DNA from: Candidatus Poribacteria bacterium
GTDB lineage: Bacteria; Poribacteria; WGA-4E; WGA-3G
Assembly: GCA_965116815.1 (NCBI GenBank)
Contig: OZ220722.1
Location: forward strand, 1,695,050-1,759,049
Direction of reading: 5' to 3'
Length of the DNA stretch: 64,000 nucleotides
Position numbers and translations under genes: made by a program. The notes under the pieces were generated by a model. That model was given only the letters and a program-made list of their open reading frames with translations. It did no database searches and was not told where the DNA came from. Below are positions 5,019 to 28,218 of this stretch, in pieces (position 1 is the first letter of the stretch; every line of letters begins with the position of its first letter).

Positions 5019-5496
5019 CAGAAAGAATACTCCGTGATTATGTTCCGCCGAGTTTGGACGGATACAGCAATAAATAGACAAGTTCTCTCAATATCAAGTT
5101 GCTTCCGTATTGGAGAGTATACCAAACACAACGCTAAAATAAAACCCATAAATTTGAAACATCACTTTGCCGTTCTATAATTAAAGATACTATTTTGAGA
5201 CGGAAAGGGTGCATAACCTGAAATAAATTGAATTTTTCGACTGAAAAGCCGCAATTTTAAGCAAGGCTTACGCTAATTCTTTGCTTCTGGTATTTGCTTA
5301 GACAGCACTCAGAGAAGCGTGTGGCGCGTAAGCCTCACAATATTGATGGAACAGAATAGCCAAAGAGGTCTATCACTTTGTCCTATAGAGAAGGGGCGAA
5401 GACCCCTTTCTTACATTCTACTTTGGTTTCTCAGGAGGCGTTAGTTCCTGAGGAGGAGTCGGCTCTTTGAGGTGTTCTAAAGCCGCTTGTGTACCC

Positions 5497-5994: not shown

Positions 5995-6009
5995 TCTTAG
6001 TATCTCCTT

Positions 6010-6747: not shown

Positions 6748-6896
6748 TTTTCTTTCTCCTTCAGAGGCGTTATGTTGCCTCGTGTTTGAAGTTTAACCTT
6801 TGAACAATATTTGCCAAAAAAGGCGAGGTATTTGCGTAACACAATGAACATCGCTGATAATTCGGCTCTCATTAGTATGTCGTGTCGTACTTCGCG

Positions 6897-8312: not shown

Positions 8313-8335
8313 ATTGAACTCCCTTTAATTTTATT

Positions 8336-9187
8336 CTAATTTGGCTCGTCAGGAGGAAGTGGTTCCTGAGGATGCATCGGTTCTTCGGAGCGTTCTAAAG
8401 CCTCTTGTGCGCGCGCAATCTGTTTCCTTGCATGCTCAAGTTGCTTCCTGACATGCTCAAGCTGCTGTGAATTCAACGCTTTATGTTCAAGTTGAGTCAT
8501 AGCGCGCACAATTGATTCCTTACTGCGTTTAAGGGCAAGTTTAATTTGCTCTCTACTACGTTCAATCTGTTTCCCAGTGTGCTTACTTACCAACTTATTG
8601 ATGTAAGCGGCTTTATAAGTTTCCCAATCATCTGTTGGTGGAATACCGCGAAACCCTGCCTCATACAAATCTGGATTGTCTTCCAAGAGTACCAAAAGGT
8701 AACGCTTTGATAGCAAGGACGCATACTCGTCGGAGTTATCTATGGTGATGCCTTTATCCAAAAGCAGCTGAAGCCATTCCGCTCGTGGATATCTCGCATC
8801 TATCTCACTTATTGTGAGGTCGCTGCTATAAGTCGTAGTTCTTGGCCGTTCCAATATCTCCCCGTTGCGAATCACTAAGCTGCCATCGGATATAATCACT
8901 TTGGTCTCTGGTAGTTTCTTTGACAGTCCCTTATTGTAATCCACATTTAACGCTTTCATCAATTCCCGCGCGTTTTGAGGACCGATGTACCTTTTATAAT
9001 TGGATGACACTGTCGAAGTGAATTCAATGGATTCACTTTTTACCTGTGTCTTCGACGATCCAGTTTCGGAACTTTGTGTATATGCATAGGTGCCTCCCCA
9101 CAAAAGGATGGCGAGTCCTAAAGTTGCGAAGAATGGAAGTCTTGCGAGAGTTTTTCCGCAGTGAAAAATGCGTTTCATTTTTAGCAT
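8336..9187 (-). CDS. Secreted hypothetical protein with C-terminal coiled coil (long paralogue of 5497..5994)
   Basis: Signal peptide MLKMKRIFHCGKTLARLPFFATLGLAILLWGG. Shares the conserved central domain with 5497..5994. The C-terminus has heptad repeats (EHVRKQLEHARKQIARAQEALERSEE). Confidence 0.6.
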   Translation of the reverse strand: MLKMKRIFHCGKTLARLPFFATLGLAILLWGGTYAYTQSSETGSSKTQVKSESIEFTSTVSSNYKRYIGPQNARELMKALNVDYNKGLSKKLPETKVIISDGSLVIRNGEILERPRTTTYSSDLTISEIDARYPRAEWLQLLLDKGITIDNSDEYASLLSKRYLLVLLEDNPDLYEAGFRGIPPTDDWETYKAAYINKLVSKHTGKQIERSREQIKLALKRSKESIVRAMTQLEHKALNSQQLEHVRKQLEHARKQIARAQEALERSEEPMHPQEPLPPDEPN

Positions 9188-9306
9188 CTCCTTTTAATTC
9201 AGAGGCATTATGTTGCCTCGTGTTTGAACTTTAACCTTTGAACAATATGCGTCTGTATCCGAATGACGCGTTTTAAACGGTGTCGGCAATTCAGCTATCA
9301 TCAACA

Positions 9307-10728
9307 TCAAATATCGGAACGGAAGAATTTCAGGAATGCCACGGTTGTCAATACCACAGCAAAGAAGCAGAGCAGCAGCACATCCACCGCCGATTGACGG
9401 AACGTCTCTCCTAAAGTCGTTATCTCCAAAGATGGTGGTTGTGTAATTTTGACTCGTCTGCTTTGTCTGCTATAAGCATGATCTATAATTTTACTGAACA
9501 AATCTGTATAGAGCATCTCATAATAGCGATCACCTGTTTGAAAATAGGTGCTTCTTTTTGCCTTTCCAGTCTGTGTCAAGTTTGTAGAGATATAAATTAA
9601 GGAAGATGTCGGTGTGAGTCGAGAAAGCATCTGCCCCACCTGTTCTTGCCGTTCAGTTTCACGTTTATGATTCCGATCCAATTTGTTAGAATGGTTCTGG
9701 AATCTTGATCTATATTCCGCTTCAAGAGGTTTCATACGTTCATTAATTTTTTTCGAAATCTCCCCGCCTATAGATCTGCGTCCCTTCTCATCGGGCGGGA
9801 CTTCCATGATCATTTTCTGTTTTTCCTCTTCGAGTGCTGCGTTGAAATCGTCTCGCATGGCTGTTTTTTCCATATAGACACTCTGTGCAGTCTGTGTTGG
9901 TGCGATAAATTTGGCAGCAAGGAACCCAACGCGTGGCGTGATCAATACCGCAAACACCCAGACGGTAAAGGCAACGATGAGTGCCGTTTTAGAATTGTCT
10001 AAGTAGGTGGAAATCACCGTGCCGATTGCAAAAAAGACTCCAATATAAAGCAACGAGATGAGGATTAAACTGAGAACTCTCGGAAAAATTTCAGGTTCGC
10101 CGAGAGGGAACCCTTGCCAGACAAGCATCAGTAAGCCGAAAAGCAACGACACCAAGAATGGAACGACAAACACCGCGTATCCGCCAATCAATTTGCTCCA
10201 TAAAAATAGGTCGCGCGGCAGGGAATTCGCTAAGGTGATCCGAAGGGTGCCCGCTTCTCGTTCCCCGGCAACGGCATCGAACGTAAACAGTAGGGCAAGG
10301 AGACTAAAAACAGTACCGACTATGAATAGAAAATCAAGATGCCCTAACAGATTGGAAAGAGAGGAAACCAAGGCGGGTGCCCCTTGTGTAATCCCATTAC
10401 GTGTCATGCCGAGATAGCTCGGCAACGTATCTGCTAACCCATTTGCGAAGACGCTCAAAGGGGTCGGTTTGAGGATAAGTTTGGAAACCTCCAGTTCTGG
10501 ATCCAGTGGCATCCCTGGATTCATTGTGGTTTCTTCAATGTTTGTAAGTTTAACGGCTTCTTGGTAATCCACTAAGTTCTGGCGATAATTTCGGTAATTT
10601 GTAGAAAGTGTCAGCGGGACGAGAAGGAGGCACATCAAAAGAAGCGCGACGAAACGGACGCTCAGAATATGATGCATAATCTCTTTTTGAATCATAGTCA
10701 TTAACATTTGAATTTTCCTTTCACTCAC
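9307..10728 (-). CDS. ABC-2 family transporter permease-like membrane protein (paralogue 2)
   Basis: Same architecture and GEREAGTLR motif as 6897..8312. Confidence 0.6.
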   Translation of the reverse strand: MSERKIQMLMTMIQKEIMHHILSVRFVALLLMCLLLVPLTLSTNYRNYRQNLVDYQEAVKLTNIEETTMNPGMPLDPELEVSKLILKPTPLSVFANGLADTLPSYLGMTRNGITQGAPALVSSLSNLLGHLDFLFIVGTVFSLLALLFTFDAVAGEREAGTLRITLANSLPRDLFLWSKLIGGYAVFVVPFLVSLLFGLLMLVWQGFPLGEPEIFPRVLSLILISLLYIGVFFAIGTVISTYLDNSKTALIVAFTVWVFAVLITPRVGFLAAKFIAPTQTAQSVYMEKTAMRDDFNAALEEEKQKMIMEVPPDEKGRRSIGGEISKKINERMKPLEAEYRSRFQNHSNKLDRNHKRETERQEQVGQMLSRLTPTSSLIYISTNLTQTGKAKRSTYFQTGDRYYEMLYTDLFSKIIDHAYSRQSRRVKITQPPSLEITTLGETFRQSAVDVLLLCFFAVVLTTVAFLKFFRSDI

Positions 10729-10932
10729 TGATATTGAGGATTGCGTTTTTTCAAACTAATTTCGGTGAAGTGGTGTCTGTTTCCCTTTTATAATTAAGGA
10801 TACGGGTTTGGAGGGGAAAGGGTGCATAAAACGAAAAAACTGGATTTTCATCTCAGAAATTGTAAAAATGTTGAAATTGTTGGGTGGCTTTGAGAGGTGG
10901 CAATTGCTGATAATCAAATGTTATGTAAACGA

Positions 10933-11012: not shown

Positions 11013-14000
11013 TCAACGCTTGGGACGACGTAGCACAACGCCTCCCTGTCCAGCGACCCATAACGTCTCTCCATCTTTGACACGCGTGATGGTATACAGG
11101 TCATTGTCAATGCCGGTATGCTCCCGTTTCCACGTTTCACCGCCATCTGTTGAATGAATGATAGCACCAGCGGCACCGACGGCATAGATTTCCTGTTCAG
11201 AGAGTGCCAAAATATCGTAAAGCGTTTCCGACATACCGCTCAACTTTGACTCCCAAGTGAATCCGCCATCAGATGTGGATAGGATAATCCCGGCGCGTCC
11301 GACAGCCCATCCCTGTCTTTTCGTGATGAATGACACACCGTAAAGGTCGTAACCTGCGTATGTCTCATGGAATTTCCAATATTCGCCACCGTTGACGGTT
11401 CGCTGGATGACCCCATTGGTTCCAACCGCCCAACCGAGCGGTGCAAATTTCATATCAATACCTGTGAGGTTTCTACCCGTTGAGGTGCGCTGAAATTCCC
11501 AAATCGGACCGCCATCCAGGTTGTGAAGAATATCTCCATTTTCACCGACAGCCCATCCTTCGGAAAAATTGCCAAAGGCAACCTCATTTATGGAGATGTC
11601 AAAGCCTGGTGGCAGCTCCTGCGCGTTTTCTGTTGACCAGTCCTCACCGTCTGCGGTGTAAAGCATACCGCCATCGCGTTTCATCGCCCAGCCCCATTTC
11701 GGATCAAGACTGATGAAGTGGACATTAACGATGCGGTCCGTGGTACCACTCTCCAAACGCTCCCAATTTTTTCCACCGTCCTCTGTTGACAGCAGGACTC
11801 CGTTATCTCCGGCAATCCAACCGTTTTGCTCGTCGAGAAATATCACATCTCGGAAGTTATCGGGTGCTTCACCAAATTGGTGGTGCCAGGTCTTGCCGCT
11901 ATCTGTGGTGGCGTAAATCTGGCCCCCGGATTTTTGTGCCGTCTCAGTCCCACCCGAGTCGGCTCGATACACGTGCCCTTCATGAATCCGCTCCGCACCG
12001 ACAGCCCAACCGTGCCCATCTGCCAGGAAATAGGCGTTGGTAATTTGGGTCAAGAGTGGGTCGGCTTGTTCGAGTGCCATTCTATCTACCCAACTTGTGG
12101 GTTCGCTGTTCTCAGTTTCGCCTCTGGACGAAGTATGGAGTGGCTTCCAGTTTTTACCTTGGTTCTGTGTGGTGAGAATCGCCCCACCGATACCAATTCC
12201 CCACGCTTCGGCGTGATTTCGGAATTTCACGGTCTGCAGCTGGATATTCAAATACGTTCCTTTAATCTCTCGTTCTGCTTCCAGATCCCGTTTCCAACTC
12301 TCTCCGCCGTCTGTGGTAAACAGCGATGTCCCGTTCTCCATCACCGCCCAACCCGATGTAGCATCCATGAAATGGACACCGATACAACGGTTATGGGTTC
12401 TGGCTTGAATCTCCCAGTAGTCTCCACCGTCAACCGTGTGTAGAATCAATCCGCCAGTCCGCCGTTGGGGGGCAACTGCCCATCCCTCTTTGCTATTAAT
12501 AAAATGCAAGTCCGTAATTGACTGCTGTGTTGCACTGGTTTGCTGAGGGGTCCAAGTTTTACCGCCATCGGTTGTCCGCAGAATTTGTCCCCTATCAACA
12601 CCCAGCCATCCCTGTTTTGGGTTAATGAAGTGGATGGCACGGATACTGCCGTAGGGTCGCGCACCTGAACGCGAAGGTTGCAGGTCTTCGCGAATAATCT
12701 GCCACGTTTTGCCACCGTTTTCGGTGCGTAGTAGTACACCTTGTCCACCAATCCAACCGTGGTTTTCATCGATGAAAACAATGCGCTGTAATTCTTCTGT
12801 CACGCCACTCTGTTGCAGCTGCCATGTCGTGCCACCGTTTGTGGTGTGCAAAATGGTACCGCTACCCCCCACTGCCCAGCCCTCCTGCGCAGATAGGAAG
12901 TAGGTATCGGTGAAATGGGTTTGCAAAGCCCCTTGACGCACGATCTCCCAGTGAGATTCAATCGGTTCAATCGGTTTCTCATCGGTTTCTATATCCTGTG
13001 CAGCAGGCGGCAACTCGGCGATGAACTGCTCCGTGTCCACAGAATAGCGCATCGCAATGCCACCTTCACCCACAAGGAGGATACCATCGGGAGAGAGCGA
13101 GAAACTATAGAGATCGTTGGACGTGCCACTTTTCTGCAACTCCCACGTCACACCTCCATTGATGGTGGTCAGAATGACACCTTCATCGCCGACAATTAAC
13201 CCGTGATTCGCATCGGCAAAGTAGACTTTATTCAGATTTGCCTGCGTTCCACTCCGTTGGAATTTCCATGTTTTTCCGCCATCAAGCGTGTGTAGAATCT
13301 CGCCGAATTGCCCGACCACCCAGCCGGTGTGTTGATCGATAAAGTAAGCGGCGTAGAGTTCGTTGTAGCTGTTGCTGTTCTGTCGTTTCCACGTCAATCC
13401 ACCATCTTGGGTATGAAAGACAATACCGGGCCACCCGACGACCCACCCCTCTGTCTCATTGAGGAAAAAGATGCCTTTAATCATTTCGTGGAAATAGCGT
13501 GGTGCTTGTTGACTCCACGTTTCTCCACCGTCTGTTGTATGAAGCACAGTCCCCAAATCTCCAACGATCCAGCCCTTTTTCGGATTGATGAAATGGAGCG
13601 CATTGAGGGTGTACCACCATCCACTGGTTTGTCGTTCCCATGTCTGACCGGCATCGGTTGTGTGAAGGATAAGTCCGCCATCGCCAACCGCCCAACCTTC
13701 TTTGTCGGTAGCGAAAGATAGATTACGGATGCGATGCCACGTGTCCATCTCAATGTTCGTCCAGGTTTTACCACTGTCGTTACTCGTCGTGATTGTGCCT
13801 TTTTCTCCGACGGCAACCGCCCGGTCAGCATCCGCAAACGCGACACTTTGCAGGTCGTCAGCTGTCGTGCCACTTCTCATGTTCCATGTTACCCCGCCAT
13901 CGGTCGAGTGTAGGAGCGTGCCGTTCCAACCGACTGCCCATGCCTCTTTAGGACTTGTGAAGTGAACCCCCATTAGGTCGTTCTTCGTTGGGGTTTCTGA

Positions 14001-14873
14001 TAATCTCCAATTGTCGCCGCCATCTTCGGTTCGAGTGATAAACCCACCCTGCGCGACTGCTACGCCGTAGTCATCATCAATAAAATGGAAGTCATAGACG
14101 GTTGGACGGACGTGTCCATAAACCGGTGGAAGCCGACTATCTTGTCCTCGCCACTCTGTGCCGCCATCGCTGGTATGAAAGATGCTCCCGTCCGTGCCAC
14201 CACTCCATCCGTTGAAAGGGTTCGTAAAAAATACCGTATGGAGATTGCAAACCGTTGATGTTTGATCTTCTCTCACGAAGTTATCCTGTCCGCGCCAGGT
14301 CTGACCGCCGTCTGTGGTAACAAAGATTTGATTGTAATCTCCAACTGTCCACCCGCGCTGCTTATCCATGAACCAGATACCGCCAAGTCCGAATCCGTCA
14401 ATTGCTTCTTGATGGTGCCATGTTTCTCCACCATTTTGTGTATATAGCAGCCCATTCTGTCCAGCGATCCATCCCGTTTTTGAATTAGTGAAAAAGACAT
14501 CCATAAGCAGCGCATGGGCTTGACGTTTTTGAAGAGTCCAGTGTCGCCCACCATCGTCGGTGATAGCGATTAATCCCTTGTCACCAACTGCCCAGCCGTT
14601 ACGAAGGTTTGTGAAATAAACCGCTTTGAAATCTTCATTTGTATTCACCGTCTGTTTTTCCCAGCTCACACCACCGTCAGCCGTATGGAGAATCCATCCT
14701 TGATGCCCGACAATCCATCCGTGTTTGGCATCTGCAAAGTAGATGTCCGTAAAATGGGTTTGCCAGTCTGCTATGCGAGTAATTTCCTTTTTTACACAAC
14801 CGGTGAACAGAAAAGGCACTCCGAAGAGAATCGCCATCCAAAAGTAAGTGATGTGTTGAAAAATCTTTTTCAT
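11013..14873 (-). CDS. Giant lipoprotein made of ~29 Ycf48-like/BNR (Asp-box) repeats, predicted to form multiple 7-bladed beta-propellers (copy 1)
   Basis: Lipoprotein signal MKKIFQHITYFWMAILFGVPFLFTGC. Repeating GW(A/I)VG..G.IL.T.DGG.TW units occur roughly every 43 aa. GGAGG RBS. Confidence 0.8.
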   Translation of the reverse strand: MKKIFQHITYFWMAILFGVPFLFTGCVKKEITRIADWQTHFTDIYFADAKHGWIVGHQGWILHTADGGVSWEKQTVNTNEDFKAVYFTNLRNGWAVGDKGLIAITDDGGRHWTLQKRQAHALLMDVFFTNSKTGWIAGQNGLLYTQNGGETWHHQEAIDGFGLGGIWFMDKQRGWTVGDYNQIFVTTDGGQTWRGQDNFVREDQTSTVCNLHTVFFTNPFNGWSGGTDGSIFHTSDGGTEWRGQDSRLPPVYGHVRPTVYDFHFIDDDYGVAVAQGGFITRTEDGGDNWRLSETPTKNDLMGVHFTSPKEAWAVGWNGTLLHSTDGGVTWNMRSGTTADDLQSVAFADADRAVAVGEKGTITTSNDSGKTWTNIEMDTWHRIRNLSFATDKEGWAVGDGGLILHTTDAGQTWERQTSGWWYTLNALHFINPKKGWIVGDLGTVLHTTDGGETWSQQAPRYFHEMIKGIFFLNETEGWVVGWPGIVFHTQDGGLTWKRQNSNSYNELYAAYFIDQHTGWVVGQFGEILHTLDGGKTWKFQRSGTQANLNKVYFADANHGLIVGDEGVILTTINGGVTWELQKSGTSNDLYSFSLSPDGILLVGEGGIAMRYSVDTEQFIAELPPAAQDIETDEKPIEPIESHWEIVRQGALQTHFTDTYFLSAQEGWAVGGSGTILHTTNGGTTWQLQQSGVTEELQRIVFIDENHGWIGGQGVLLRTENGGKTWQIIREDLQPSRSGARPYGSIRAIHFINPKQGWLGVDRGQILRTTDGGKTWTPQQTSATQQSITDLHFINSKEGWAVAPQRRTGGLILHTVDGGDYWEIQARTHNRCIGVHFMDATSGWAVMENGTSLFTTDGGESWKRDLEAEREIKGTYLNIQLQTVKFRNHAEAWGIGIGGAILTTQNQGKNWKPLHTSSRGETENSEPTSWVDRMALEQADPLLTQITNAYFLADGHGWAVGAERIHEGHVYRADSGGTETAQKSGGQIYATTDSGKTWHHQFGEAPDNFRDVIFLDEQNGWIAGDNGVLLSTEDGGKNWERLESGTTDRIVNVHFISLDPKWGWAMKRDGGMLYTADGEDWSTENAQELPPGFDISINEVAFGNFSEGWAVGENGDILHNLDGGPIWEFQRTSTGRNLTGIDMKFAPLGWAVGTNGVIQRTVNGGEYWKFHETYAGYDLYGVSFITKRQGWAVGRAGIILSTSDGGFTWESKLSGMSETLYDILALSEQEIYAVGAAGAIIHSTDGGETWKREHTGIDNDLYTITRVKDGETLWVAGQGGVVLRRPKR

Positions 14874-14896: not shown

Positions 14897-16999
14897 TTAC
14901 TGTGTTCGAGGATTCGGGATTACAACCGGGTCGAGTAATACTGGAGATTTTTGAGAGGGTGAATAAACACCGACTGCAGCACCAGCATCCGTAGCGAACC
15001 AGATTTTACCCTGACTGTCTTCAAATACCGACCAAACGCGGTTGCTCGGTAGACCATCGTCTGTGTTAATGTTTTGGAACGTTTCGCCGTTATACACACT
15101 CACACCAACACCGACTTCAGGGATTGGAATATTATCCTCGGCTTCGTGAACCTCAATCGTTAGGGGTAATTTTTTACTACCTGTGAACCAGAGATTGCCG
15201 TTGGTGTCTCGCAGGATACTCTCAACCTTATTCATTGGAAGTTCTTCGCTTTGTGGAAAGTGAACTAATTCTTTGCCATCGTAGCGACGGATGCCAGTAT
15301 ATTCGTCCCCTACGCCTTCTTGGGTAATCCAGAGATTATTCTGTGCATCAAACTGTAGGTTTGTTATTTGTCCGCTTTGCGACTGTCCCATCTCCCTGAA
15401 AGCGTTTAAATTTACATCAAGGTACCGGAAATCAGACGTTTGGAGGTTGTAATAGGTAATACCGGCGTAGCTGCCAAACCAAAAATTTCCTGCTGTATCC
15501 TGTGCAATCGCTGTAACTTGATTCCACCAATGCGGTAGAACCTCCATCCCTGTGGGTCCATTGAAGATAAGACTGCTAAACTTTTCACCGTCGTAGCGAC
15601 TCACACCTTCATCCGTGGCGAACCAAAGCGTCCCCGTTTTGTCCTCAAACATGTCCTGAATGGGACCGCGGAGGAGTCCATCGGCTCCGGTAAACGTCCG
15701 AAACGCTTGTCCATCATAGCGACTTATACTTTCTAATGGAGTAGGTGTCTGTGTTTTCATCTCCATTTCGTCCTGGACGGTATTAGCGAGTTCGCTTAAT
15801 GGCATATTGATGTATGACATATCTATAAACTTTGGTCTATTCAGCGCATTTGCGAGCATTCCATCCCCAAACCAGAGCATGCCCTGCCGGTCTTCAAAGA
15901 TAAGACCTGTCGTGTTTCGTGATAAGCCATCTTCTGTTGTGAAGGTTTGGAAGTTGTCTCCGTCATAACGTGTGATACCGTCGGCTGTGCCAAACCACAG
16001 CGCACCTTGGCTGTCTTCAAAGATAGTGAGCACAGTATTGGATGCTAAACCATCTGCTTCGGTAATTGTTCTTTCTATAAGAAGTTTGCCGGCATTGCTG
16101 GATGCGGGCTGCATGCCAGCACCCCTGTTCTGACTCGGGTGAGATGTCTGTCCGATCTGATTCCTAACATCGGGTTTAGCATCCGTATCAAGAACGATGT
16201 CGGTATCAATGATTTCAATAGTCGGTTCGGATCTCGCCTCAAGACTATACGGCTTCTGAAAACGGGCAAGATACTGATTACTGGCACCTATCATCAACAG
16301 AATCACGACCGCGGCACTCCCAAGAGCCGCCCACGGTAACACCGGTTTCCCACTCGGAGGAGATACCGGGGTTATATCAGCAACCTCCCGCATGATACGC
16401 GCTGTCAAATCAGCGGATAATTCAACGCCGCCGAGCACTTCACTCACCAAGGGTTCTGACGCTTTTAAACGTTCTCGTCCCCGGCGAAGTCGTCCCTTAA
16501 TTGCACTCACCGACACCCCTAAGTATTTGCTAATTTCCTTAGCTGTCATTTCGCCGAGATAGTGGAGCGTCAGCACTGTGCGTTCGCTCTCTGGGAGCCT
16601 TTTCAAAAGGTTTTTAACGACTTCAGAACGGTGTTCCGCTGCTTCTGTCTCGCGCCGCTCCGACATATAATGTTGATACGAGGATTCCTCTATCTCTACC
16701 ATAGGTGTGTCCTCCAAAGATGGCATCGTGGATTTACGCCTTTTAAGCCAGTTAAGGGCAAGTCGATTTGCTATGACATACAGCCAGCCAGAAAAACATT
16801 TCGGATCCTTTAAAGCCCCGAGTTTTTTGTAGACCTGGATGAAAGTATCTTGCGTGATCTCTTCGGCATGGTGAAAATCACCAATCTTCCGCCAGATGAG
16901 GGCGTGAACACCCTTTTGATGCTTTTCAACTAAGGTGCTGAATGCCGAATCGTCGCCTGACAGAACCCTATAAATCAATTGAACATCGTTTTCTAACAT
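14897..16999 (-). CDS. ECF sigma-70 factor fused via one TM helix to an extracytoplasmic Reg_prop (two-component-regulator propeller) domain
   Basis: The sigma-2/sigma-4 regions are ~75% identical to those of 2010..5018. TM LPWAALGSAAVVILLMIGASNQYLA. Then NTVLTIFEDSQGALWFGTADGITRYDG-type Reg_prop repeats. Confidence 0.8.
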   Translation of the reverse strand: MLENDVQLIYRVLSGDDSAFSTLVEKHQKGVHALIWRKIGDFHHAEEITQDTFIQVYKKLGALKDPKCFSGWLYVIANRLALNWLKRRKSTMPSLEDTPMVEIEESSYQHYMSERRETEAAEHRSEVVKNLLKRLPESERTVLTLHYLGEMTAKEISKYLGVSVSAIKGRLRRGRERLKASEPLVSEVLGGVELSADLTARIMREVADITPVSPPSGKPVLPWAALGSAAVVILLMIGASNQYLARFQKPYSLEARSEPTIEIIDTDIVLDTDAKPDVRNQIGQTSHPSQNRGAGMQPASSNAGKLLIERTITEADGLASNTVLTIFEDSQGALWFGTADGITRYDGDNFQTFTTEDGLSRNTTGLIFEDRQGMLWFGDGMLANALNRPKFIDMSYINMPLSELANTVQDEMEMKTQTPTPLESISRYDGQAFRTFTGADGLLRGPIQDMFEDKTGTLWFATDEGVSRYDGEKFSSLIFNGPTGMEVLPHWWNQVTAIAQDTAGNFWFGSYAGITYYNLQTSDFRYLDVNLNAFREMGQSQSGQITNLQFDAQNNLWITQEGVGDEYTGIRRYDGKELVHFPQSEELPMNKVESILRDTNGNLWFTGSKKLPLTIEVHEAEDNIPIPEVGVGVSVYNGETFQNINTDDGLPSNRVWSVFEDSQGKIWFATDAGAAVGVYSPSQKSPVLLDPVVIPNPRTQ

Positions 17000-17410
17000 C
17001 AGAGAACCTCATAATAAATGAGTAAATCAGCACACATCTACGTTCTCCACAGATTAGATCTGCGGAGATGCCAAATACGCAAACTCTATTTCCAACTTCA
17101 CTTTATATTAAAGACACATTTTTAAAGCGAAAGGGTACATAATTTGAAAAAAATCAAAAAATTACTCAAATTTCCGACCTTACTTTATATTAAAGACACA
17201 TTTTTAAGAGGGAAGGGTACATAATTTAGGCGTTAGGCAAATTGAACAGAGAATCGGAAACCCATTTGCTGAAAATGCCTCGCAGTGAGAGTATTACGTT
17301 GCATATAACCCCCTAAATCCGCCAACCCCCATATCCCCCCTTATCAGGGGGGTAGGGGGACTTTAAGAGGAAATGCGTAAGTCCTAATATAATTTGATGT
17401 CATGCAAACC

Positions 17411-17467
17411 AAAACAAAAATCGCGCGGGGAGCTATGTGTGTTCTACATGCCTCCGCACGATTTTTA
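17411..17467 (-). terminator. Rho-independent (bidirectional) terminator downstream of BNR lipoprotein copy 2
   Basis: Stem AAAAATCGCGCGG / CCTCCGCACGATTTTT with one mismatch. T-run in the minus sense. Homologous to the 10933..10985 terminator. An additional 13-bp perfect inverted repeat (GACCAAGAACTCG...CGAGTTCTTGGTC) at 17489..17541 abuts the stop codon. Confidence 0.7.
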
Positions 17468-17545
17468 AACGCTTATGAGATAAACAGATTTGACCAAGAA
17501 CTCGTCTACAGATACTTTTGGTAAAGCGCGAGTTCTTGGTCAAGG

Positions 17546-20500
17546 TTAACGTTTAGGACGACGCAGCACAACGCCTCCCTGTCCAGCGACCCACAGCCTC
17601 TTCCCATCTTTAACACGTGTGATGACATACAGGTCATTGTCAACGCCAGTATGCTCCCGTTTCCACGTTTCACCACCATCTGTCGAATGAATGATGGTTC
17701 CAGCAGCACCGACGGCGTAGATTTCATGTTCAGAGAGTGCCAAAATATCGTAAAGCGTTTCCGACATACCGCTCAACTTTGACTCCCAAGTGAATCCACC
17801 GTCAGTGGTGGATAGGATAATCCCGGCGCGTCCGACTGCCCATCCCTTTCTTTTCGTGGTGAACGACACGCCGTGAAGGTCGTAGCCTGCGTGTGTCTCG
17901 TGGAACTTCCAGTATTCACCGCCGTTGACTGTTCGCTGAATTACGCCGTTGCTCCCAACGGCCCAGCCGAGGGGTGCAAACTTCATATCAACGCTTCTGA
18001 GGTTTTTACCGGTTGAAGTGTGCTGCAATTTCCAGATCGGACCGCCGTCCAGATTGTGGATAATTTCTCCATTTTCACCAACTGCCCATCCCTCAGAGAA
18101 TTTACCAAAAGCAGCTTCATTTATCGAGAGTGGAGGTAGTTGATGCTGGGGAAGATCAGGTAGTTCGCGCTGTGGAAGTTCTTGATTGTTGTCTGTTGAC
18201 CAATCATCGCCATTGGTCGTATAGAGCAGGGTTCCATCCCTTTCCATCGCCCAGCCCCATTTTGGCTCAAGACTGATGAAGTGGACATCGACGATGCGGG
18301 CCATTGTGTTGGTTTGCAACCGCTTCCAATTTATTCCACCGTCCTCTGTTGATAGCAAGGCTCCGTTATCTCCAGCGATCCAACCGTTCTGCTCATTGAG
18401 AAACAGCACATCGCGAAAATTATCAAGCGGTTCACCGAGTTGATGGTGCCAAGTTTTTCCGCCATCTGTCGTGGCGTAAATCTGACCCGTAGATGCCTCT
18501 GCTTCATTGGAGCCACCAATATCAGCCCCGACCGATTCCCTGTCGAAAATTTGTTCTCGACCCACTACCCAACCACGCCCATCCGGTAGAAAATGCGCGT
18601 TGGTAATTTGAATTGAGTATCCAAACGGACGTTCCGCTGCCATTTCTTCTATCCAACTTTCCGAGTCACCATTTTCACTTTCCTGCCCAAACAAGGAATT
18701 CAGTGTTTTCCAACTCTCACCTTGGTTTTGGGTGGTAAGAATCATCTGTCCAGCGTTAATTGCCCAAGCTGTTGCCCAAGCCTCGGTGTGATTGCGGAAT
18801 TTCACCGTAACCAGATGGATATCCAAATTCAATCCTTTAATGTCTCGCCCTGTGTCCAGATCTCGTTTCCAATTCTCTCCACCATCTGTGGTAAGAAGTG
18901 AGGTTCCGTCTTCCATTATCACCCAACCCGATGTGGCATTCAGAAAATGGATACCAATGCAACGCTGATGGGTTGTGGCTTGGATTTGCCAGTAATCACC
19001 GCCATCAACTGTGTGTAGGATAAATCCACCTGTCCGCCGTTGGGGTGCAACTGCCCATCCTTCTTGACTGTTGATGAAATGCAGGTGCGTGATCGGTTGC
19101 TGGGTTGTCCCTGTTTGCTGAAGCGTCCAGGTTATGCCACCATCGTTTGTACGCAGGATCTGCCCTCTATCGACACCGATCCATCCTTCTTTCGGATTGA
19201 TGAAGTGTATCGCACGAATATTGCGAAAGTTTTTCAACCCTTCACGGACAACGTGCCACGTCTCGCCCCCGTTTTCAGTTCGCAGCAGTACGCCTTGACC
19301 GCTAATCCAACCGTGTTTTTTATCAATGAAAACAATCCGTTGTAATTCTTCGGTCACGCTGCTCTGTTGTGTCTGCCATGTCGTGCCACCATCTGTGGTC
19401 CGTAAAATGGTACCGCCGTCACCGACTGTCCACCCTTCCTCTGCAGACAGGAAATAGGTATCGGTGAATTTGGATTGCCAACTTCCTTGACGGACGATTT
19501 CCCAGTGATATTCAATCGGTTCAATCGGTTTCTCATCGGTTTCTATGTCTTGCGCAGCAGGTGGCAACTCGGCAATGAACTGCTCCGTGTCTACAGAGTA
19601 GCGCATCGCAATGCCACCTTCACCCACAAGGAGGATACCATCGGGAGAAAGCGAAAAACTATAGAGATCGTTGGACGTGCCGCTTTTCTGTGATTCCCAC
19701 GTCATTCCACCATTGATGGTGGTTAAAATGACCCCTTCATCACCGACAATTAATCCGTGATTTGCATCGGCAAAGTAGACTTTGTTCAGATGTGCCTGCG
19801 TCCCACTCCGCTGGAATTTCCACGTTTTGCCGCCATCAAGCGTGTGTAGAATCTCACCAAATTGCCCGACCACCCAGCCGGTATGTTGATCGATAAAGTA
19901 AGCAGCGTAGAGTTCGTTATAGCTGTTGCTGTTCTGTCGTTTCCACGTCAATCCACCGTCTTGGGTGTGAAAGACAATACCGGGCCACCCGACGACCCAA
20001 CCCTCTGTCTCATTGAGGAAAAAGATGCCTTTAATCATTTCGTGGAAATAGCGCGGTGCTTGTTGTACCCACGTTTCTCCACCGTCTGTTGTATGGAGCA
20101 CAGTGCCCAAATCTCCAACGATCCAGCCCTTCTGAGGATTGATGAAATGGAGAGCATTGAGAGTATACCACCATCCGCTGGTTTGCCGTTCCCATGTCTG
20201 ACCGGCATCGGTTGTGTGCAGGATAAGTCCGCCGTCGCCAACCGCCCAGCCTTCTTTGTCAGTGACAAAAGATAAGTTCCGAATGCGGTGCCACGTGTCC
20301 ATCTCAATGTTCGTCCAGGTCTTGCCACTGTCGTCACTCGTCGCAATTGTGCCTTTCTCTCCGACGGCAACCGCCCGGTCAGCATCCGCAAACGCGACAC
20401 TCTGCAGATCATCAGCTGTCGTGCCACTTCTCATGTTCCATGTTACCCCGCCATCGGTCGAGTGTAGGAGGGTACCGTTCCAACCGACTGCCCATGCCTC

Positions 20501-21427
20501 TTTAGAAGTCGCAAAATGAACACCCATCAGGTCGTTTTTGGTTTGGTTTTCTGTTAATCTCCAGTTTTCCCCGCCATCTTCGGTCCGAATGATGAACCCG
20601 CCCTGTGCAACCGCCACGCCGTAGTCATCATCAATAAAATGGAAGTCATAGACGGTTGGACGGACATGTCCATAAATCATCGGGAGTCGACTGTATTGGG
20701 TCTGCCATTCTGTTCCACCGTTAGTTGTGTGGAAAATGGTGCCGTCTGTGCCACCGCTCCACCCCTTATAAGGGGTCGCAAAAAATACCGTATGGAGGTT
20801 GCAAACCTCCGATGTATCGTGTTCCGTTCTCGCAAGCTGATCCTGTCTACGCCAAGTTTGGCTACCGTCTGAAGTGACAAAAATCCTGTCGTAATCTCCC
20901 ACGATCCATCCGCGATGCTTGTCTACAAAGTGGATGCCACCGAGTCCGAATTCGCTCGCTTCCTGATGATGCCATGTTTTTCCACCATTTTTTGTTTGTA
21001 ACAGCCCATCCTGACCAGCAATCCAACCGGTCTTTGAGTTGAGGAAAAAGACATCCATAAGCAGCGTGTGCGCTTGATTCCTTTGCAGGGTCCAGTGTCG
21101 TCCACCGTCGTCAGTAATAGCAATTAACCCTTTGTCGCCAACTGCCCAACCGTTACGAAGGTTTGTGAAGTAAACCGCTTTGAAATCCTCATGCGTGTTC
21201 ACTGTCTGTTTTTCCCAACTTACGCCGCCATCAGCCGTATGAAGAATCCATCCCTGATGCCCCACAATCCATCCGTGTTTGGCATCCGCAAAGTAGATGT
21301 CCGTAAAATGGGTTTGCCAGTCCGCTATACGAGTAATCTCTTTTTTCACACAACCGGTGAACAGGAAAGGAATTGCCAAAAGAGTTGCTATTGAAAAACA
21401 AGTGATGTATTGAAAAATCTTTTTCAT
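17546..21427 (-). CDS. Giant Ycf48-like/BNR-repeat lipoprotein (copy 2, ~90% identical to 11013..14873)
   Basis: Start at the ATG at 21427 (MKKIFQYITCFSIATLLAIPFLFTGC) with an AGGAGA RBS. The ORF track gives 17546..21451. Long stretches are >90% identical to copy 1 at the nucleotide level. Confidence 0.8.
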   Translation of the reverse strand: MKKIFQYITCFSIATLLAIPFLFTGCVKKEITRIADWQTHFTDIYFADAKHGWIVGHQGWILHTADGGVSWEKQTVNTHEDFKAVYFTNLRNGWAVGDKGLIAITDDGGRHWTLQRNQAHTLLMDVFFLNSKTGWIAGQDGLLQTKNGGKTWHHQEASEFGLGGIHFVDKHRGWIVGDYDRIFVTSDGSQTWRRQDQLARTEHDTSEVCNLHTVFFATPYKGWSGGTDGTIFHTTNGGTEWQTQYSRLPMIYGHVRPTVYDFHFIDDDYGVAVAQGGFIIRTEDGGENWRLTENQTKNDLMGVHFATSKEAWAVGWNGTLLHSTDGGVTWNMRSGTTADDLQSVAFADADRAVAVGEKGTIATSDDSGKTWTNIEMDTWHRIRNLSFVTDKEGWAVGDGGLILHTTDAGQTWERQTSGWWYTLNALHFINPQKGWIVGDLGTVLHTTDGGETWVQQAPRYFHEMIKGIFFLNETEGWVVGWPGIVFHTQDGGLTWKRQNSNSYNELYAAYFIDQHTGWVVGQFGEILHTLDGGKTWKFQRSGTQAHLNKVYFADANHGLIVGDEGVILTTINGGMTWESQKSGTSNDLYSFSLSPDGILLVGEGGIAMRYSVDTEQFIAELPPAAQDIETDEKPIEPIEYHWEIVRQGSWQSKFTDTYFLSAEEGWTVGDGGTILRTTDGGTTWQTQQSSVTEELQRIVFIDKKHGWISGQGVLLRTENGGETWHVVREGLKNFRNIRAIHFINPKEGWIGVDRGQILRTNDGGITWTLQQTGTTQQPITHLHFINSQEGWAVAPQRRTGGFILHTVDGGDYWQIQATTHQRCIGIHFLNATSGWVIMEDGTSLLTTDGGENWKRDLDTGRDIKGLNLDIHLVTVKFRNHTEAWATAWAINAGQMILTTQNQGESWKTLNSLFGQESENGDSESWIEEMAAERPFGYSIQITNAHFLPDGRGWVVGREQIFDRESVGADIGGSNEAEASTGQIYATTDGGKTWHHQLGEPLDNFRDVLFLNEQNGWIAGDNGALLSTEDGGINWKRLQTNTMARIVDVHFISLEPKWGWAMERDGTLLYTTNGDDWSTDNNQELPQRELPDLPQHQLPPLSINEAAFGKFSEGWAVGENGEIIHNLDGGPIWKLQHTSTGKNLRSVDMKFAPLGWAVGSNGVIQRTVNGGEYWKFHETHAGYDLHGVSFTTKRKGWAVGRAGIILSTTDGGFTWESKLSGMSETLYDILALSEHEIYAVGAAGTIIHSTDGGETWKREHTGVDNDLYVITRVKDGKRLWVAGQGGVVLRRPKR

Positions 21428-21505
21428 CTGTTTTGTCTCCTTTAGTAGCAATCAGCAAAGACGCAAACGTTTAGGATCGTTTCTTTTTTTACGGGCAGCC
21501 GACGG

Positions 21506-22732
21506 CTATTTTTCAGAGGGTAGATAAACCCCGACTGCGGCACCAGCGTCCGTAGCAAACCAGAGTTTGCCACTGCTGTCTTCAAACACCGACCAGACTC
21601 GGTTACTCGGTAGACCGTCGTCTGTGTTAAAGTTTTGGAACCTCTCACCGTTATAGACACTTACACCAGTATTGACGACATTGTAAAGCATGCTAACGCT
21701 TTCCTCAGTTTCGTTTATCGTCGGAGGCAGGTTCTTGACACCGGTAAACCAGAGGTTGCCGCTGCTATCCTGCATGATGTTGTCAACGCTATTCATTGGA
21801 AGTGCTTCACTTTGTGGAAAGGTTGTCAGTTTTTTGCCATCGTATCGACGTATACCGCTGTCTTCCTCGTCCATACCATCTTTACTCATCCAGAGGTTTT
21901 CCTTCGCATCGAACTGCTGATCTGTTATGTTTGCAGTTGGGGCATTCCCCATCTCTTGGAAAAGGGTGAAGTCCTCGTCGATAGCAAAATGACGGAAACG
22001 GTTCGTTTGGAGGTTGTAATAGGTAATGCCAGCGGTGCTGCCAAACCAAAAATTTCCTGCTGTATCCTGTGCAATCGCTTTAATTTCGTCCCACCGATCC
22101 GGTAATACTTGCATCCCGATCGGTCCGTTCATAGTGATAGTGTTGAAAGTTTCCCCGTCATAGTGACTCACACCAGCCGATGTCGCGAACCAAAGCGTAC
22201 CAGTTTCGTCTTCAAAGATATCTTTAATGGTATCACGGGGGAGACCGTCGGCGGTCGTAAAAATCCTGAACTTTTCGCCGTCGTAGCGACTCACGCCTTT
22301 TAACCGAATGGGCTTTCTCGTTCCTGCTGATGTTTCATCATAGGGTGTGAGATCGAGTTCACTCAATGGCGTTTCCATCCAAGACATATCCATAGGCTTC
22401 CCTCTTTCCAGAAAGCTTGAAAGCACACCGTCAGCAAACCAAAGCATTCCTCGTTGGTCTTCAAAGATGAGACCTATCGTGTTCCGTGAAAGTCCATCTT
22501 CTGTTGTGAAGGTTTGGAAATTCTTCCCATCATAGCGGGTGAGTCCATCGGTCGTTCCGAACCACATCGTGCCACTGCTATCTTCAAAAATGGTGAGCAC
22601 CGTATTGGATACCAAACCATCCGCTTGGGTTAAGGTCTTTTCGATTTTAAGCTCCGCTGCGCTGGCAACATATACTACCCAATTCAACAGTAGAAACATA
22701 GCAAGCCACATTGCATGAGATCGTTTTCGCAT
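21506..22732 (-). CDS. Secreted stand-alone Reg_prop beta-propeller protein (paralogue of the C-terminal domain of 14897..16999, without a sigma domain)
   Basis: Probable start MRKRSHAMWLAMFLLLNWVVYVASA (signal peptide) at 22732. The repeats TLTQADGLVSNTVLTIFEDSSGTMWFGTTDGLTRYDG are near-identical to the fusion protein. There is no room for a sigma domain before the next gene. Confidence 0.7.
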   Translation of the reverse strand: MRKRSHAMWLAMFLLLNWVVYVASAAELKIEKTLTQADGLVSNTVLTIFEDSSGTMWFGTTDGLTRYDGKNFQTFTTEDGLSRNTIGLIFEDQRGMLWFADGVLSSFLERGKPMDMSWMETPLSELDLTPYDETSAGTRKPIRLKGVSRYDGEKFRIFTTADGLPRDTIKDIFEDETGTLWFATSAGVSHYDGETFNTITMNGPIGMQVLPDRWDEIKAIAQDTAGNFWFGSTAGITYYNLQTNRFRHFAIDEDFTLFQEMGNAPTANITDQQFDAKENLWMSKDGMDEEDSGIRRYDGKKLTTFPQSEALPMNSVDNIMQDSSGNLWFTGVKNLPPTINETEESVSMLYNVVNTGVSVYNGERFQNFNTDDGLPSNRVWSVFEDSSGKLWFATDAGAAVGVYLPSEK

Positions 22733-22961: not shown

Positions 22962-23780
22962 TTACAAGCGGTAATTTGCTAATTTGATATCCGCCCAAGT
23001 CGTTGTCACCTTATCGCTCGGTGAAACAGCGAGGAAGTTTCCCGACATTGCTTGTTTGATCTCGGTTCCACTGAGCCCGCGCTGCCATACCGCTGCTTCG
23101 TCAATAGAGCCATTGACAAATGCATATTTATTTTTTGCGCATCCTATCCAGACGGGTGCGATATTGTCACCAGCGAAGTTGAATTCCTTCTTTTCTTCGC
23201 CCATGACTTCACCGTCTAAATAGATTTTCGTCGTTTTCCCGTCGTAACTTCCCGCAACATGATGCCACCGTTTTTCCTTCATTTTGTGCGGAACGATGAA
23301 TTCTTGTCGATCCGAACCCCCATGGTCATCCCGTGACCCCAGAAGCAACCAGATTTCTGGTCCGCGACCGATGTCAATACTACCGATGCCATAAGAGGCT
23401 CCCCACTTGACTTCAAACCAATGACAGCCCTTATCAATCCAATGCACCTTCTTGCCTTTCCACGTTTCTTGATAATAGACCCATGCCATCATTGTTATTT
23501 CATCTACGACTTTTAACTTCTCCCGAGACGGAATATTGACGCAATCCTGTCCGTTGTTCGTAATGTGGATTGCATCCCCATACTTACCCTTGACAATCTC
23601 AGTATTTTCAATGATCTCCGCGTCGAGACCATTACCCGACGTATCAACAATCGTCTGCTTTTTAACGTTGTCAAAGTCCAGATAAAAAACGAGGTCTTCA
23701 TTAAGCCCTGCGTTCGCGTGAGTCGTCACTAACAGAATAACAACATTAAAAAAGATAGTACCGATGGGTAACCGTGCCAT
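22962..23780 (-). CDS. Secreted LamG-like (concanavalin-A-like lectin/glucanase, Laminin_G_3) domain protein
   Basis: Signal peptide. The DTSGNGLDAEI..GKYGDAIHITNNGQDCVNIP motif is characteristic of LamG_3. Confidence 0.6.
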   Translation of the reverse strand: MARLPIGTIFFNVVILLVTTHANAGLNEDLVFYLDFDNVKKQTIVDTSGNGLDAEIIENTEIVKGKYGDAIHITNNGQDCVNIPSREKLKVVDEITMMAWVYYQETWKGKKVHWIDKGCHWFEVKWGASYGIGSIDIGRGPEIWLLLGSRDDHGGSDRQEFIVPHKMKEKRWHHVAGSYDGKTTKIYLDGEVMGEEKKEFNFAGDNIAPVWIGCAKNKYAFVNGSIDEAAVWQRGLSGTEIKQAMSGNFLAVSPSDKVTTTWADIKLANYRL

Positions 23781-24321
23781 ATTTTTGCTCCTTTATGATT
23801 TGTCGAGTTTCCCTTGAAATGGTAAACGTAAAGACAATGTGCAATTTATGTGCCAACCTGAGAGTGATATCATGGTGAAACGGGAAATATCGCCTTGATA
23901 GTCGGTTGAACGCGGGATTAAGCGATTTTTAGGAGATAAAAATATTTGAAAGAACACTGCACCAAATAGGGCAGATAATACGGACAACTGCACGAATTTG
24001 TGCAATGACCTCGACGCTGTGTGCCTTTTATGTTTCAACATTAGATGAACCATTTTGTCAGTCATATATAGTAAAGTCCGTAACTATCTATACATCACCC
24101 AAAGGGCGAGGATACAATCCTCGCCAGCGGCGTGGAAGGTTGGTTCGCTAACCAACTAACTGTCTATATGTTTCCGGGCTTTACTACTTTACTATATAAT
24201 GACGCGGATAGCAGACGAAAGGGTTGCCTAATTCTGCCAAAAATTGGGGGAAATGTAATAAAGGACATAGATCGCGTCTATGTCCAAAGGGAAGTGTAGG
24301 AAGGCGTATTCTTGACGCTAT

Positions 24322-28198: not shown

Positions 28199-28218
28199 GG
28201 ATTCACCTGTTGGAAAAT

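Follow-up and report, generated by a model that had tools for sequence, protein, structure and literature searches.

Sigma factors of the extracytoplasmic function (ECF) type that are joined to a membrane anchor and an outward-facing domain in one polypeptide have been reported before. Here, we describe such proteins in a stretch of Candidatus Poribacteria DNA of 64,000 nucleotides (GenBank assembly GCA_965116815.1, contig OZ220722.1, positions 1,695,050 to 1,759,049 of the forward strand), called the window throughout. Two open reading frames (ORFs) of the window, ORF A and ORF B, each encode an ECF sigma factor followed by one transmembrane (TM) helix, a juxtamembrane (JM) module, and a large ectodomain. 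An earlier note on this DNA had called single-chain transmembrane ECF sigma factors at most sparsely described, which understates the record: IutY (PMC5411451), ECF48/52/53 (PMC8999054), and planctomycete ECF-WD40 proteins (PMC8567305) had already been reported. As single-chain sigma-TM-sensor proteins are on record, the basic design is not categorically new.

The FecI-like protein IutY of Pseudomonas putida (group ECF243) combines a cytosolic ECF sigma factor, one TM helix, and a periplasmic domain in one chain (PMC5411451, PMC8999054). Prc trims IutY to ~50 periplasmic residues, RseP then cuts, and truncated forms are constitutively active (PMC5411451, PMC8999054). Actinobacterial sigma factors of groups ECF48, ECF52, and ECF53, such as SCO4117, bear a C-terminal extension with TM helices and an extracytoplasmic domain of carbohydrate-binding type, and proteolytic activation has been proposed for them (PMC5826349, PMC8999054). 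Group ECF263 contains sigma factors with five to seven TM helices (PMC7826278). Finally, PMC8567305, citing Jogler et al. 2012, describes Planctomycetes (Gemmataceae) in which ECF sigma factors occur in association with WD40 repeats. These form expanded families with many young paralogues, and ECF sigma factors of Tuwongella immobilis were recovered partly in detergent-soluble fractions (PMC8567305).

Our literature search found no link between Poribacteria and ECF sigma factors, the group lists of the ECF reclassification being outside its scope. Poribacteria are uncultivated sponge symbionts with many secreted eukaryote-like repeat proteins, for which a role in host interaction is suspected. 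The planctomycete ECF-WD40 proteins correspond to the group "ECF01-Gob" and have one TM helix. In the SigI/RsgI systems (arrays in Clostridium thermocellum, RsgI in Bacillus subtilis), paralogues share a conserved sigma-binding/TM chassis and vary in their extracellular carbohydrate-binding sensor modules. The RsgI sensor modules have relatives among the secreted proteins of the regulon, and the first cut falls in the JM region. SigI and RsgI are separate proteins, RsgI has an N-terminal anti-sigma domain, and its JM domain cleaves itself.

RESULTS

A and B are each one unbroken chain, as had been claimed from the bare sequence. ORF A (14897..16999, minus strand, stop codon 14897..14899) encodes 700 amino acids in the order ECF sigma factor, linker, TM helix, JM module, and Reg_prop propeller. 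ORF B (2010..5018, minus strand, ATG at 5018) encodes 1002 amino acids, in which a chassis of the A type carries a BNR/Sortilin-type ectodomain. Neither a stop codon nor a frameshift interrupts A or B on the way from the sigma part to the hydrophobic helix. Identical 700- and 1002-residue products are already present in public gene calls on a 5.85-Mb contig, and the name that NCBI gives to such proteins is merely "sigma-70 family RNA polymerase sigma factor." The sigma domains had been put at ~75% identity, and the measured value is close but lower, at 72.6% over A residues 1 to 179; identity is 67% when the first 289 residues are compared and 71% within the 45-residue JM module. The claim that the sensor domains are unrelated held, as no similarity could be detected between the two ectodomains. 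Their sizes had been given as 450 to 800 residues and are in fact 415 residues in A and 711 in B.

The fused genes recur in many genomes. A scan with the N-terminal 290 residues found 404 genome stretches that encode relatives, of which 80 were analyzed. The 80 loci hold 99 copies, in many cases as tandem pairs or triplets, and among the loci listed closed chromosomes carry up to at least four copies each. The complete genes of this architecture in the 80 loci number 89 and fall mainly into two length classes, ~600 to 705 and 952 to 1019 amino acids, which match A and B. Moreover, a HMMER scan of 1.84 billion representatives, with A residues 185 to 290 (linker, TM, and JM) as the query, returned 245 clusters at an E value of ≤0.001, 190 of them at ≤1e-10. 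The module sits behind the sigma domain, at residues ~187 to 289, in almost all full-length matches, and the same scan yielded no convincing free-standing linker-TM-JM protein. Sigma-less TM-JM-sensor proteins were considered and dismissed, as the short matches with the module at low positions look like fragments that begin at contig ends or internal methionines. Every source-named match to the chassis is from Candidatus Poribacteria, and the titles of the 80 loci name Poribacteria or, in a few cases, an uncultured bacterium. Judged by these scans, A and B belong to a large, Poribacteria-specific family of one-chain transmembrane sigma factors.

The breadth of the family bears on the simplest objection, namely, that A and B are artefacts of annotation or assembly or decaying pseudogenes in which two genes have run together. 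Nothing was found in favor of this reading. The frames of A and B are unbroken, and the 89 complete genes come from dozens of independent assemblies, closed chromosomes included. Moreover, the sigma, TM, and JM parts are under strong purifying conservation, and orthologues of A are 79 to 93% identical at full length. Thus, an artefact is so improbable that we set it aside, and we conclude that the one-polypeptide sigma-TM-propeller protein is real, well beyond chance.

The sigma domains are complete. As had been predicted, Pfam found both Sigma70_r2 and Sigma70_r4_2 in each protein; no match to sigma region 1 or region 3 was found by Pfam in either. In A, region 2 spans residues 23 to 90 (16730..16933, minus strand; E=5.5e-12) and region 4 spans residues 128 to 179 (16463..16618, minus strand; Sigma70_r4_2 match at 128 to 178, E=7.1e-15), and AlphaFold 2 modeled them with predicted local distance difference test (pLDDT) scores of ~90 and of 93 to 96, respectively. 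In B, region 2 spans residues 24 to 89 (4752..4949, minus strand) and region 4 residues 130 to 184 (4467..4631, minus strand; Sigma70_r4_2 match at 130 to 182). NCBIfam TIGR02937 scored 96.9 bits in A and 95.9 bits in B against a cut-off of 42.9. No named NCBIfam equivalog passed its cut-off, the best being SigW NF007223 (108.8 bits against 209), with the rest also below theirs. The closest sequence matches of the A sigma domain in the PDB are AlgU, SigW, and sigmaE (E=1e-21 to 1e-16). Among 57 diverse family members, sigma2 (66% mean pairwise identity) and sigma4 (69%) are the best-conserved parts, the arginine-rich recognition helix of sigma4 included, which argues that sigma function is under selection. 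By these matches, A and B are bona fide ECF (group 4) sigma factors, RpoE/SigW-like in their closest relationships.

Between sigma4 and the TM helix lies a cytoplasmic linker (residues 180 to 217 in A; 16349..16462, minus strand), and the spacing of 40 residues is fixed across the family. A model of the A chassis alone placed sigma2 and sigma4 at a pLDDT of >90 and a linker helix at residues 198 to 208 (LSADLTARIMREVA) at ~86. I202 and, at the boundary with the TM helix, K218/P219 are conserved. The best superpositions of the chassis model were on ECF structures in the closed, anti-sigma-bound state, with a root mean square deviation (rmsd) of 4.4 Å for CnrH and 7.4 to 8 Å for SigW, versus 26 to 28 Å for RNA-polymerase-bound forms. 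As support for the mechanism proposed below, this is weak evidence, as AlphaFold 2 may favor compact forms anyway.

Each protein has a single hydrophobic stretch, with a 19-residue Kyte-Doolittle maximum of 2.2 (A residues 220 to 238, and B residues 226 to 244, where the value is 2.19) and a next-best value of ≤1.0. The TM helix of A comprises residues 218 to 240 (KPVLPWAALGSAAVVILLMIGAS; 16280..16348, minus strand), and that of B comprises residues 224 to 246 (4281..4349, minus strand). It begins with the pattern K-P-x-x-P-W, in which P219 and P222 are invariant and W223, together with G238 farther along, is conserved in at least 90% of members. Neither A nor B has an N-terminal signal peptide. 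Counts of lysine plus arginine within 20 residues on either side of the TM helix are 3 versus 3 and 4 versus 2 and say nothing about orientation. The topology argument rests on the absent signal peptide and on free paralogues of the ectodomain that do bear one, such as the Sec-targeted relative of the A propeller described below. Because ~220 residues of folded sigma factor precede the only TM helix, the one realistic orientation, and the one proposed earlier, would be with the sigma factor inside and the propeller outside.

The JM module follows the TM helix directly, at residues 241 to 285 in A (NQYLARFQKPYSLEARSEPTIEIIDTDIVLDTDAKPDVRNQIGQT; 16145..16279, minus strand) and residues 247 to 291 in B (4146..4280, minus strand). 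Its consensus is NQYLxRFQKPYSFEAxSEPTIEIVDAPIVLDxDxKPxVRNQxG, in which F247, Q248, P250, and Y251 were invariant in three alignments. The earlier note, having compared 20-residue segments of A and B that differ at 3 of 20 positions, called this region almost invariant. High conservation is evident, but across the 57 diverse members the mean pairwise identity is 53%, a figure biased upward because that set was chosen through the linker-TM-JM module and yet below those of sigma2 and sigma4; the ectodomains, by comparison, average ~25%. Only P219, P222, and Y251 are fully invariant in the 57 members, and all three lie in the linker-TM-JM module, none in the sigma domain. The cassette had no match in Pfam and none in NCBIfam at E values up to 1. 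A profile search of the PDB for a known domain gave only the Notch3 TM peptide, which is TM-like, and noise. AlphaFold 2, which had been suggested as a check on the sigma4-TM-linker region, was confident about sigma4 and the linker helix but not about TM and JM, which fell below a pLDDT of 50 both in the chassis alone and, together with the spacer, in full-length A.

The chain had also been described as a sigma/anti-sigma/sensor in one polypeptide, and the middle term did not hold up. Pfam found no zf-HC2, RskA, or FecR match in A or B. The zf-HC2 test works, as the canonical anti-sigma factor of the window (28219..29172) does match. Nor is there any sign of the zinc-finger anti-sigma (ZAS) domain (HxxxCxxC) of ECF52/53, as zf-HC2 had no match, the linker is 40 residues long, and cysteines number 1 in A and 2 in B. 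We also considered an anti-sigma remnant, as by eye the linker helix LSADLTARIMREVA resembles the last helix before the TM segment in zf-HC2 anti-sigma factors, including PSSIEDAVMAKIRE. Alignment of the linker-TM-JM module with the zf-HC2 anti-sigma factor of the window by hhalign gave a probability of 0.25% (E=0.24), and the idea is unsupported. No relation of the JM segment to RsgI was found in Pfam or NCBIfam. Sigma/tether/sensor is the description that fits.

How a sigma factor is released from such a tether has a precedent in IutY, a sigma-TM-periplasmic hybrid that is activated by Prc and RseP, and it is on this precedent that a model of proteolytic release is built. By analogy, it is plausible that site-1 cleavage or docking takes place at the JM cassette and that regulated intramembrane proteolysis frees the sigma factor. 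Alternatively, the sigma factor might be active while tethered and never be cleaved, in the manner of one-component regulators of the ToxR/CadC type. Ligand binding or oligomerization of the ectodomain would then shift the linker helix and free sigma2 and sigma4 for core RNA polymerase at the membrane, and the JM and TM parts would serve dimerization or signal transmission rather than cleavage. The strictly fixed linker length and the confident helix after sigma4 would suit a mechanical transmission element, there is no anti-sigma domain in need of destruction, and no protease is encoded nearby in the window. A 40-residue tether, however, would keep a holoenzyme of ~400 kDa and its promoter DNA at the membrane, and we know of no precedent for a sigma factor held in this way. 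Moreover, P219 and P222 at the cytoplasmic boundary of the TM helix and the near-invariant G238 would fit the substrate of an intramembrane protease, and the sole experimentally studied analogue requires RseP and Prc (PMC5411451). We consider activity in the tethered state unlikely.

The ectodomains are where A and B part. The A ectodomain (residues 286 to 700; 14900..16144, minus strand) consists of a low-complexity spacer and a seven-bladed propeller with seven Reg_prop repeats (Pfam Reg_prop, E=1.5e-32), modeled as all-beta with pLDDT values of 80 to 94 in the blades. Its top Foldseek matches are the periplasmic sensor domains of BT4663, BT3049, and BT4673 (E of ~1e-14, rmsd of 4.1 to 4.7 Å, ~390 columns). 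All three belong to hybrid two-component systems (HTCS) of Bacteroides thetaiotaomicron, BT4663 being the heparin/heparan sulfate sensor. The 415 residues of A hold one propeller only, and no Y_Y_Y, HisKA, or response-regulator match was found by Pfam. The B ectodomain (residues 292 to 1002; 2013..4145, minus strand) begins with a Thr/Ser-rich spacer and continues as BNR/Sortilin-like repeats, in which seven BNR Asp-boxes were counted. Pfam Sortilin-Vps10 matched at E=2.4e-13, above its curated cut-off; with a cut-off of 27 bits each, PSII_BNR was just above (28.6 bits) and BNR just below (26.2 bits). Pfam found no WD40 repeat in A or B, whose ectodomains are thus Reg_prop and BNR/Sortilin, respectively.

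Elsewhere in the family, BNR/Sortilin ectodomains occur in 22 of the 57 diverse members and WD40 in 15, and Reg_prop, Kelch, and LRR are also present. The proposed shuffling of unrelated sensors onto a common sigma-TM chassis is borne out by these ectodomains, which are of at least five types. Free secreted Reg_prop proteins of ~406 to 427 amino acids form more than 100 clusters at 62 to 70% identity, and the sigma-fused Reg_prop proteins are a tight clade (79 to 100% identity) nested among them. The narrowness and nested position of the fused clade indicate that fusion is the derived state.

A promoter-like motif, TGCACCCTT-N17-TCTTTAAT, accompanies the family; its fuller form is TG(C/T)ACCCTT-N17-(G/A)TCTTTAAT. 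Four sites were found in the window, all on the gene strand and all within 5.1 to 17.3 kb, with none in the other ~47 kb. Two precede A, a distal copy (TGTACCCTTCCCTCTTAAAAATGTGTCTTTAAT) at 17189..17221 (minus strand) and a proximal copy at 17107..17139 (minus strand) that ends 108 nucleotides upstream of the start codon. A third (TGCACCCTTTCCGTCTCAAAATAGTATCTTTAAT; 5180..5213, minus strand) ends 162 nucleotides before the start codon of B, and the fourth (10793..10826, minus strand) lies upstream of a cluster of ABC-2 permease genes that begins at 10728. The latter two sites scored 52 and 44.6, respectively, with a position weight matrix whose maximum in shuffled sequence was 5.1, and the strict motif is expected 0.04 times by chance. 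The 80 related loci and the window together contain 78 sites, 67 of which have a total length of 34 nucleotides. Forty sites lie within 400 nucleotides upstream of family genes (36 of 101 genes) and are on the gene strand by construction; overall, 75 of 78 are on the gene strand, the exceptions being 3 of the 38 listed sites that do not precede a chassis gene. The latter sites precede neighboring, non-homologous genes, which encode ABC-2 permeases, DUF1080/3-keto-disaccharide-hydrolase-like proteins, secreted Kelch proteins, and a secreted Trypsin_2-TPR protease.

We read the motif as the predicted, autoregulated promoter of the family itself. Its layout, a C-rich -35 box, a 17-nucleotide spacer, and a TCTTTA -10 box, presumably resembles that of RpoE/AlgU-type promoters. 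Moreover, sigma2 and sigma4 vary very little from paralogue to paralogue in the parts that recognize DNA. The paralogues probably share promoter specificity, such that many inputs would feed into one promoter type. In the window, a candidate co-regulated cluster occupies 5497..10728 on the minus strand. It comprises an ABC-2 permease gene (9307..10728), a gene for a 283-residue protein, a second ABC-2 permease gene (6897..8312), a gene for a secreted 3-keto-disaccharide-hydrolase-like protein (6010..6747), and a gene for a 165-residue protein, as assigned with Pfam. In many related loci, the motif is likewise found upstream of homologues of the ABC-2 and DUF1080-like genes.

The candidate cluster has features of its own. 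The unit of an ABC-2 permease gene and a small-protein gene is tandemly duplicated, with 72 to 75% DNA identity between 6897..8312 and 9307..10728 and 79% between the small-protein parts at 5518-5760 and 8588-8830. No ABC ATPase gene was seen adjacent to the permease genes within the window. An element of ~45 nucleotides, TTAAA..CA..CACGAGGCAACATAACGCCTCTGAA, occurs on the minus strand at 5995..6040, 6748..6790, and 9188..9230, directly upstream of three ribosome-binding sites (gene starts at 5994, 6747, and 9187), and it includes a GAGGC-N8-GCCTC hairpin. A role as an intercistronic RNA element is conceivable.

Gene A lies in one half of a tandem duplication of 6.55 kb. In the first copy, A is followed 23 nucleotides after its stop codon by a gene for a 1286-residue BNR/YCF48-like putative lipoprotein (11013..14873, minus strand), a homologue of which is found near the sigma gene in seven related loci and which is the probable operon partner of A. 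In the second copy, the corresponding genes are a free Reg_prop gene (21506..22732, minus strand) and its partner, a second BNR putative lipoprotein gene (17546..21451, minus strand). The product of the free Reg_prop gene is 64% identical to A residues 301 to 686 and starts with a typical Sec signal peptide (MRKRSHAMWLAMFLLLNWVVYVASA), and GAAGGAG precedes its start codon as a ribosome-binding site. An imperfect inverted repeat of C-runs and G-runs, cccccctacccccctgataaggggggatatgggggttgg, lies in the intergenic region upstream of A (17240..17480, minus strand), between the stop codon of the BNR gene (17546) and the motif copies of A.

Free secreted paralogues of this kind suggest a different signal. 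Perhaps the ectodomain is a sentinel copy of the secreted repeat proteins of its locus and reports on their export, folding, or turnover, a form of envelope quality control in which the sigma factor feeds back on the production of the secreted proteins and on the ABC-2 exporters. A free secreted paralogue of the ectodomain, 34 to 64% identical over nearly the full length, is encoded in the same ~12-kb locus for 23 of 96 members, 14 of Kelch type and 5 of Reg_prop type. The motif precedes the genes of these secreted proteins, of ABC-2 permeases, and of the secreted trypsin-like/TPR protease, and a C-terminal [ST]xW[GAS]x[ILVM]K tail is present on the free copies and absent from the tethered ones. 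Only those 23 members, however, have a paralogue within ~6 kb, and BNR-type members such as B mostly have none. Moreover, in structure the A propeller comes closest to glycan sensors. A sentinel function is in our judgment quite unlikely, and it would differ from proteolytic release triggered by a ligand or partner protein in the signal only, not in the transduction step.

The [ST]xW[GAS]x[ILVM]K tail (for example, ...TTWGRLKQ) is shared at the C terminus by secreted neighbors of unrelated folds, namely, PD40, LamG, Kelch, and DUF1080-like proteins. It was found in 67 of 615 ORFs of the 80 related loci (such as L073:10119-11105, L052:5022-5933, and L038:2584-3681), and a LamG protein of the window (22962..23780) ends in TTTWADIKLANYRL. 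The tail could be a sorting or anchoring signal.

Further features were noted in the window. A canonical set on the minus strand consists of genes for an ECF sigma factor (29203..29916), an anti-sigma factor (28219..29172), and a MucB/RseB-like protein (27095..28222). The anti-sigma factor contains its zf-HC2 domain in three tandem copies, encoded by three 201-nucleotide repeats at 28560-29162 with 81% and 70% identity, and a triplicated anti-sigma domain is unusual. A classical-looking ECF promoter with AAC and CGTC elements, GCAACCC-N17-CGTCAT, lies at ~24180..24225 (minus strand), intergenic and downstream of an SDR gene (24322..25086), and is unlike the family motif. An 816-residue protein encoded at 29998..32448 (minus strand) has EF-hand motifs together with a CotH kinase domain and a lamin-tail domain. 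Finally, two tandem paralogous genes of the Uma2 family (putative restriction endonuclease-like), ~69% identical in DNA, occupy 40655..41880 on the plus strand.

DISCUSSION

The explanation that we prefer, at roughly even chances for all of its steps together, is that A and B are tethered sigma factors that are released by regulated proteolysis and then transcribe from the family motif. A complete RpoE/SigW-like ECF sigma factor would lie in the cytoplasm, tethered by the fixed 40-residue linker and one TM helix. Outside, the 45-residue JM cassette and a flexible spacer would bear an interchangeable ligand-binding domain, which in A would be a Reg_prop propeller of the glycan-sensing type found in Bacteroides HTCS proteins and in B a set of BNR/Sortilin-type repeats. 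We infer that the tethered sigma factor is inactive or weakly active. A change in the ectodomain, brought about by a ligand, a co-encoded BNR lipoprotein, or a free propeller, would expose the JM cassette to a periplasmic site-1 protease, which would cut in the cassette or trim up to it. A site-2 protease would then cut the TM helix, with its proline and glycine residues, and the freed sigma factor would direct RNA polymerase to TGCACCCTT-N17-(G/A)TCTTTAAT promoters. The targets would be the sigma factor's own gene and neighboring operons for ABC-2 permeases and secreted repeat proteins. For A, candidate signals are the BNR putative lipoprotein of its probable operon and, as the propeller has a BT4663-like fold, a glycan ligand.

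Several points weigh against this explanation. As A and B have no anti-sigma domain, tethering alone would have to keep the sigma factor off. TM and JM were modeled with a pLDDT of <50, so a cleavage or docking site gains no structural support from the models, and no protease gene was among the ORFs scanned in the 64-kb window. As to the motif, it was sampled in loci chosen through family genes and in one window, so a more general type of Poribacteria promoter is not strictly excluded, and the conservation of its spacer may come in part from the shared ancestry of duplicated upstream regions.

Proteases for the proposed release may nevertheless be available. The canonical sigma factor, zf-HC2 anti-sigma factor, and MucB/RseB-like protein encoded at 27095..29916 (minus strand) suggest that the usual proteolytic machinery exists in the organism. 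In only six related loci (for example, L036:2839-4728), a gene next to the family sigma genes encodes a secreted protein in which a Trypsin_2 protease is joined to a long array of TPR repeats, and this gene is preceded by the motif in loci L014, L054, L077, and L080. We regard it as a candidate partner protease.

We speculate that the family works as a plug-and-play array of one-chain sigma factors. The chassis would have repeatedly captured secreted repeat proteins of the symbiont as its heads, the "eukaryote-like" WD40, Kelch, LRR, BNR, and Reg_prop domains, and one promoter type would govern islands of genes for ABC-2 exporters and secreted repeat proteins. A dedicated protease would use the JM cassette, which has no known homologue, as its universal handle, and the co-regulated secreted trypsin-like/TPR protease of the six related loci is one candidate. 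Taken together, this is a tentative picture, and we hold it to be doubtful as a whole.

Whatever its trigger, the family physically joins repeat domains to a transcriptional output with a candidate promoter. This offers a testable route to the ligands of the repeat domains, to the responding genes, and to the way in which the host environment is read by a bacterium that has few classical regulators of this kind. For work on ECF sigma factors, the family provides a large natural series, with at least five sensor folds on a single sigma/TM/JM chassis. It could help to dissect the restraint and release of a sigma factor that has a tether but no anti-sigma domain. Synthetic biology might also draw on it for modular one-component transmembrane sensors. 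The points of note are the scale and modularity of the family and its orphan JM cassette; the basic design is unsurprising.

Among known systems, IutY, which has the sigma-TM-periplasmic plan in common with A and B, serves best as their functional model. It differs in that its periplasmic domain is of the FecR type and acts in siderophore signaling with the TonB-dependent transducer IutA, whereas A and B have no FecR match, and no gene for a TonB-dependent transducer was found among the window ORFs scanned or the frequent neighbor clusters of the 80 loci. Moreover, the sigma domain of IutY is FecI-like, and those of A and B are RpoE/SigW-like by best matches. The family-specific JM cassette and the propeller sensors also set A and B apart, and IutY has been described as unique in its genome, whereas the Poribacteria family has several paralogues per genome. 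In the proteins of ECF48/52/53, a zinc-finger (ZAS-like) anti-sigma domain separates the sigma factor from the TM segment, and there is a proline-rich region as well. A and B have no zf-HC2 match and a linker of just 40 residues, and they also differ in phylum and sigma group. The SigI/RsgI systems likewise pair a conserved chassis with varied sensor modules, but in them sigma and anti-sigma factor are two proteins.

With the planctomycete ECF-WD40 proteins, as published descriptions give them, A and B share only the general plan of an ECF sigma factor with a β-propeller. The planctomycete propellers are WD40, whereas those of A and B are Reg_prop and BNR, though 15 of the 57 Poribacteria relatives do carry WD40. 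Like A, the Bacteroides HTCS proteins BT4663, BT3049, and BT4673 have a Reg_prop propeller domain, which in them is a periplasmic sensor. Their sensors, however, comprise two propellers and a Y_Y_Y domain and act through a kinase, response regulator, and AraC output, whereas A has one seven-bladed propeller and an ECF sigma factor as its output. Against these systems, the features that appear to be particular to the Poribacteria family are the lack of an anti-sigma domain, the fixed 40-residue linker, and the JM cassette. Broad swapping of ectodomains, adjacent free paralogues, and a common promoter motif likewise appear to be its own.

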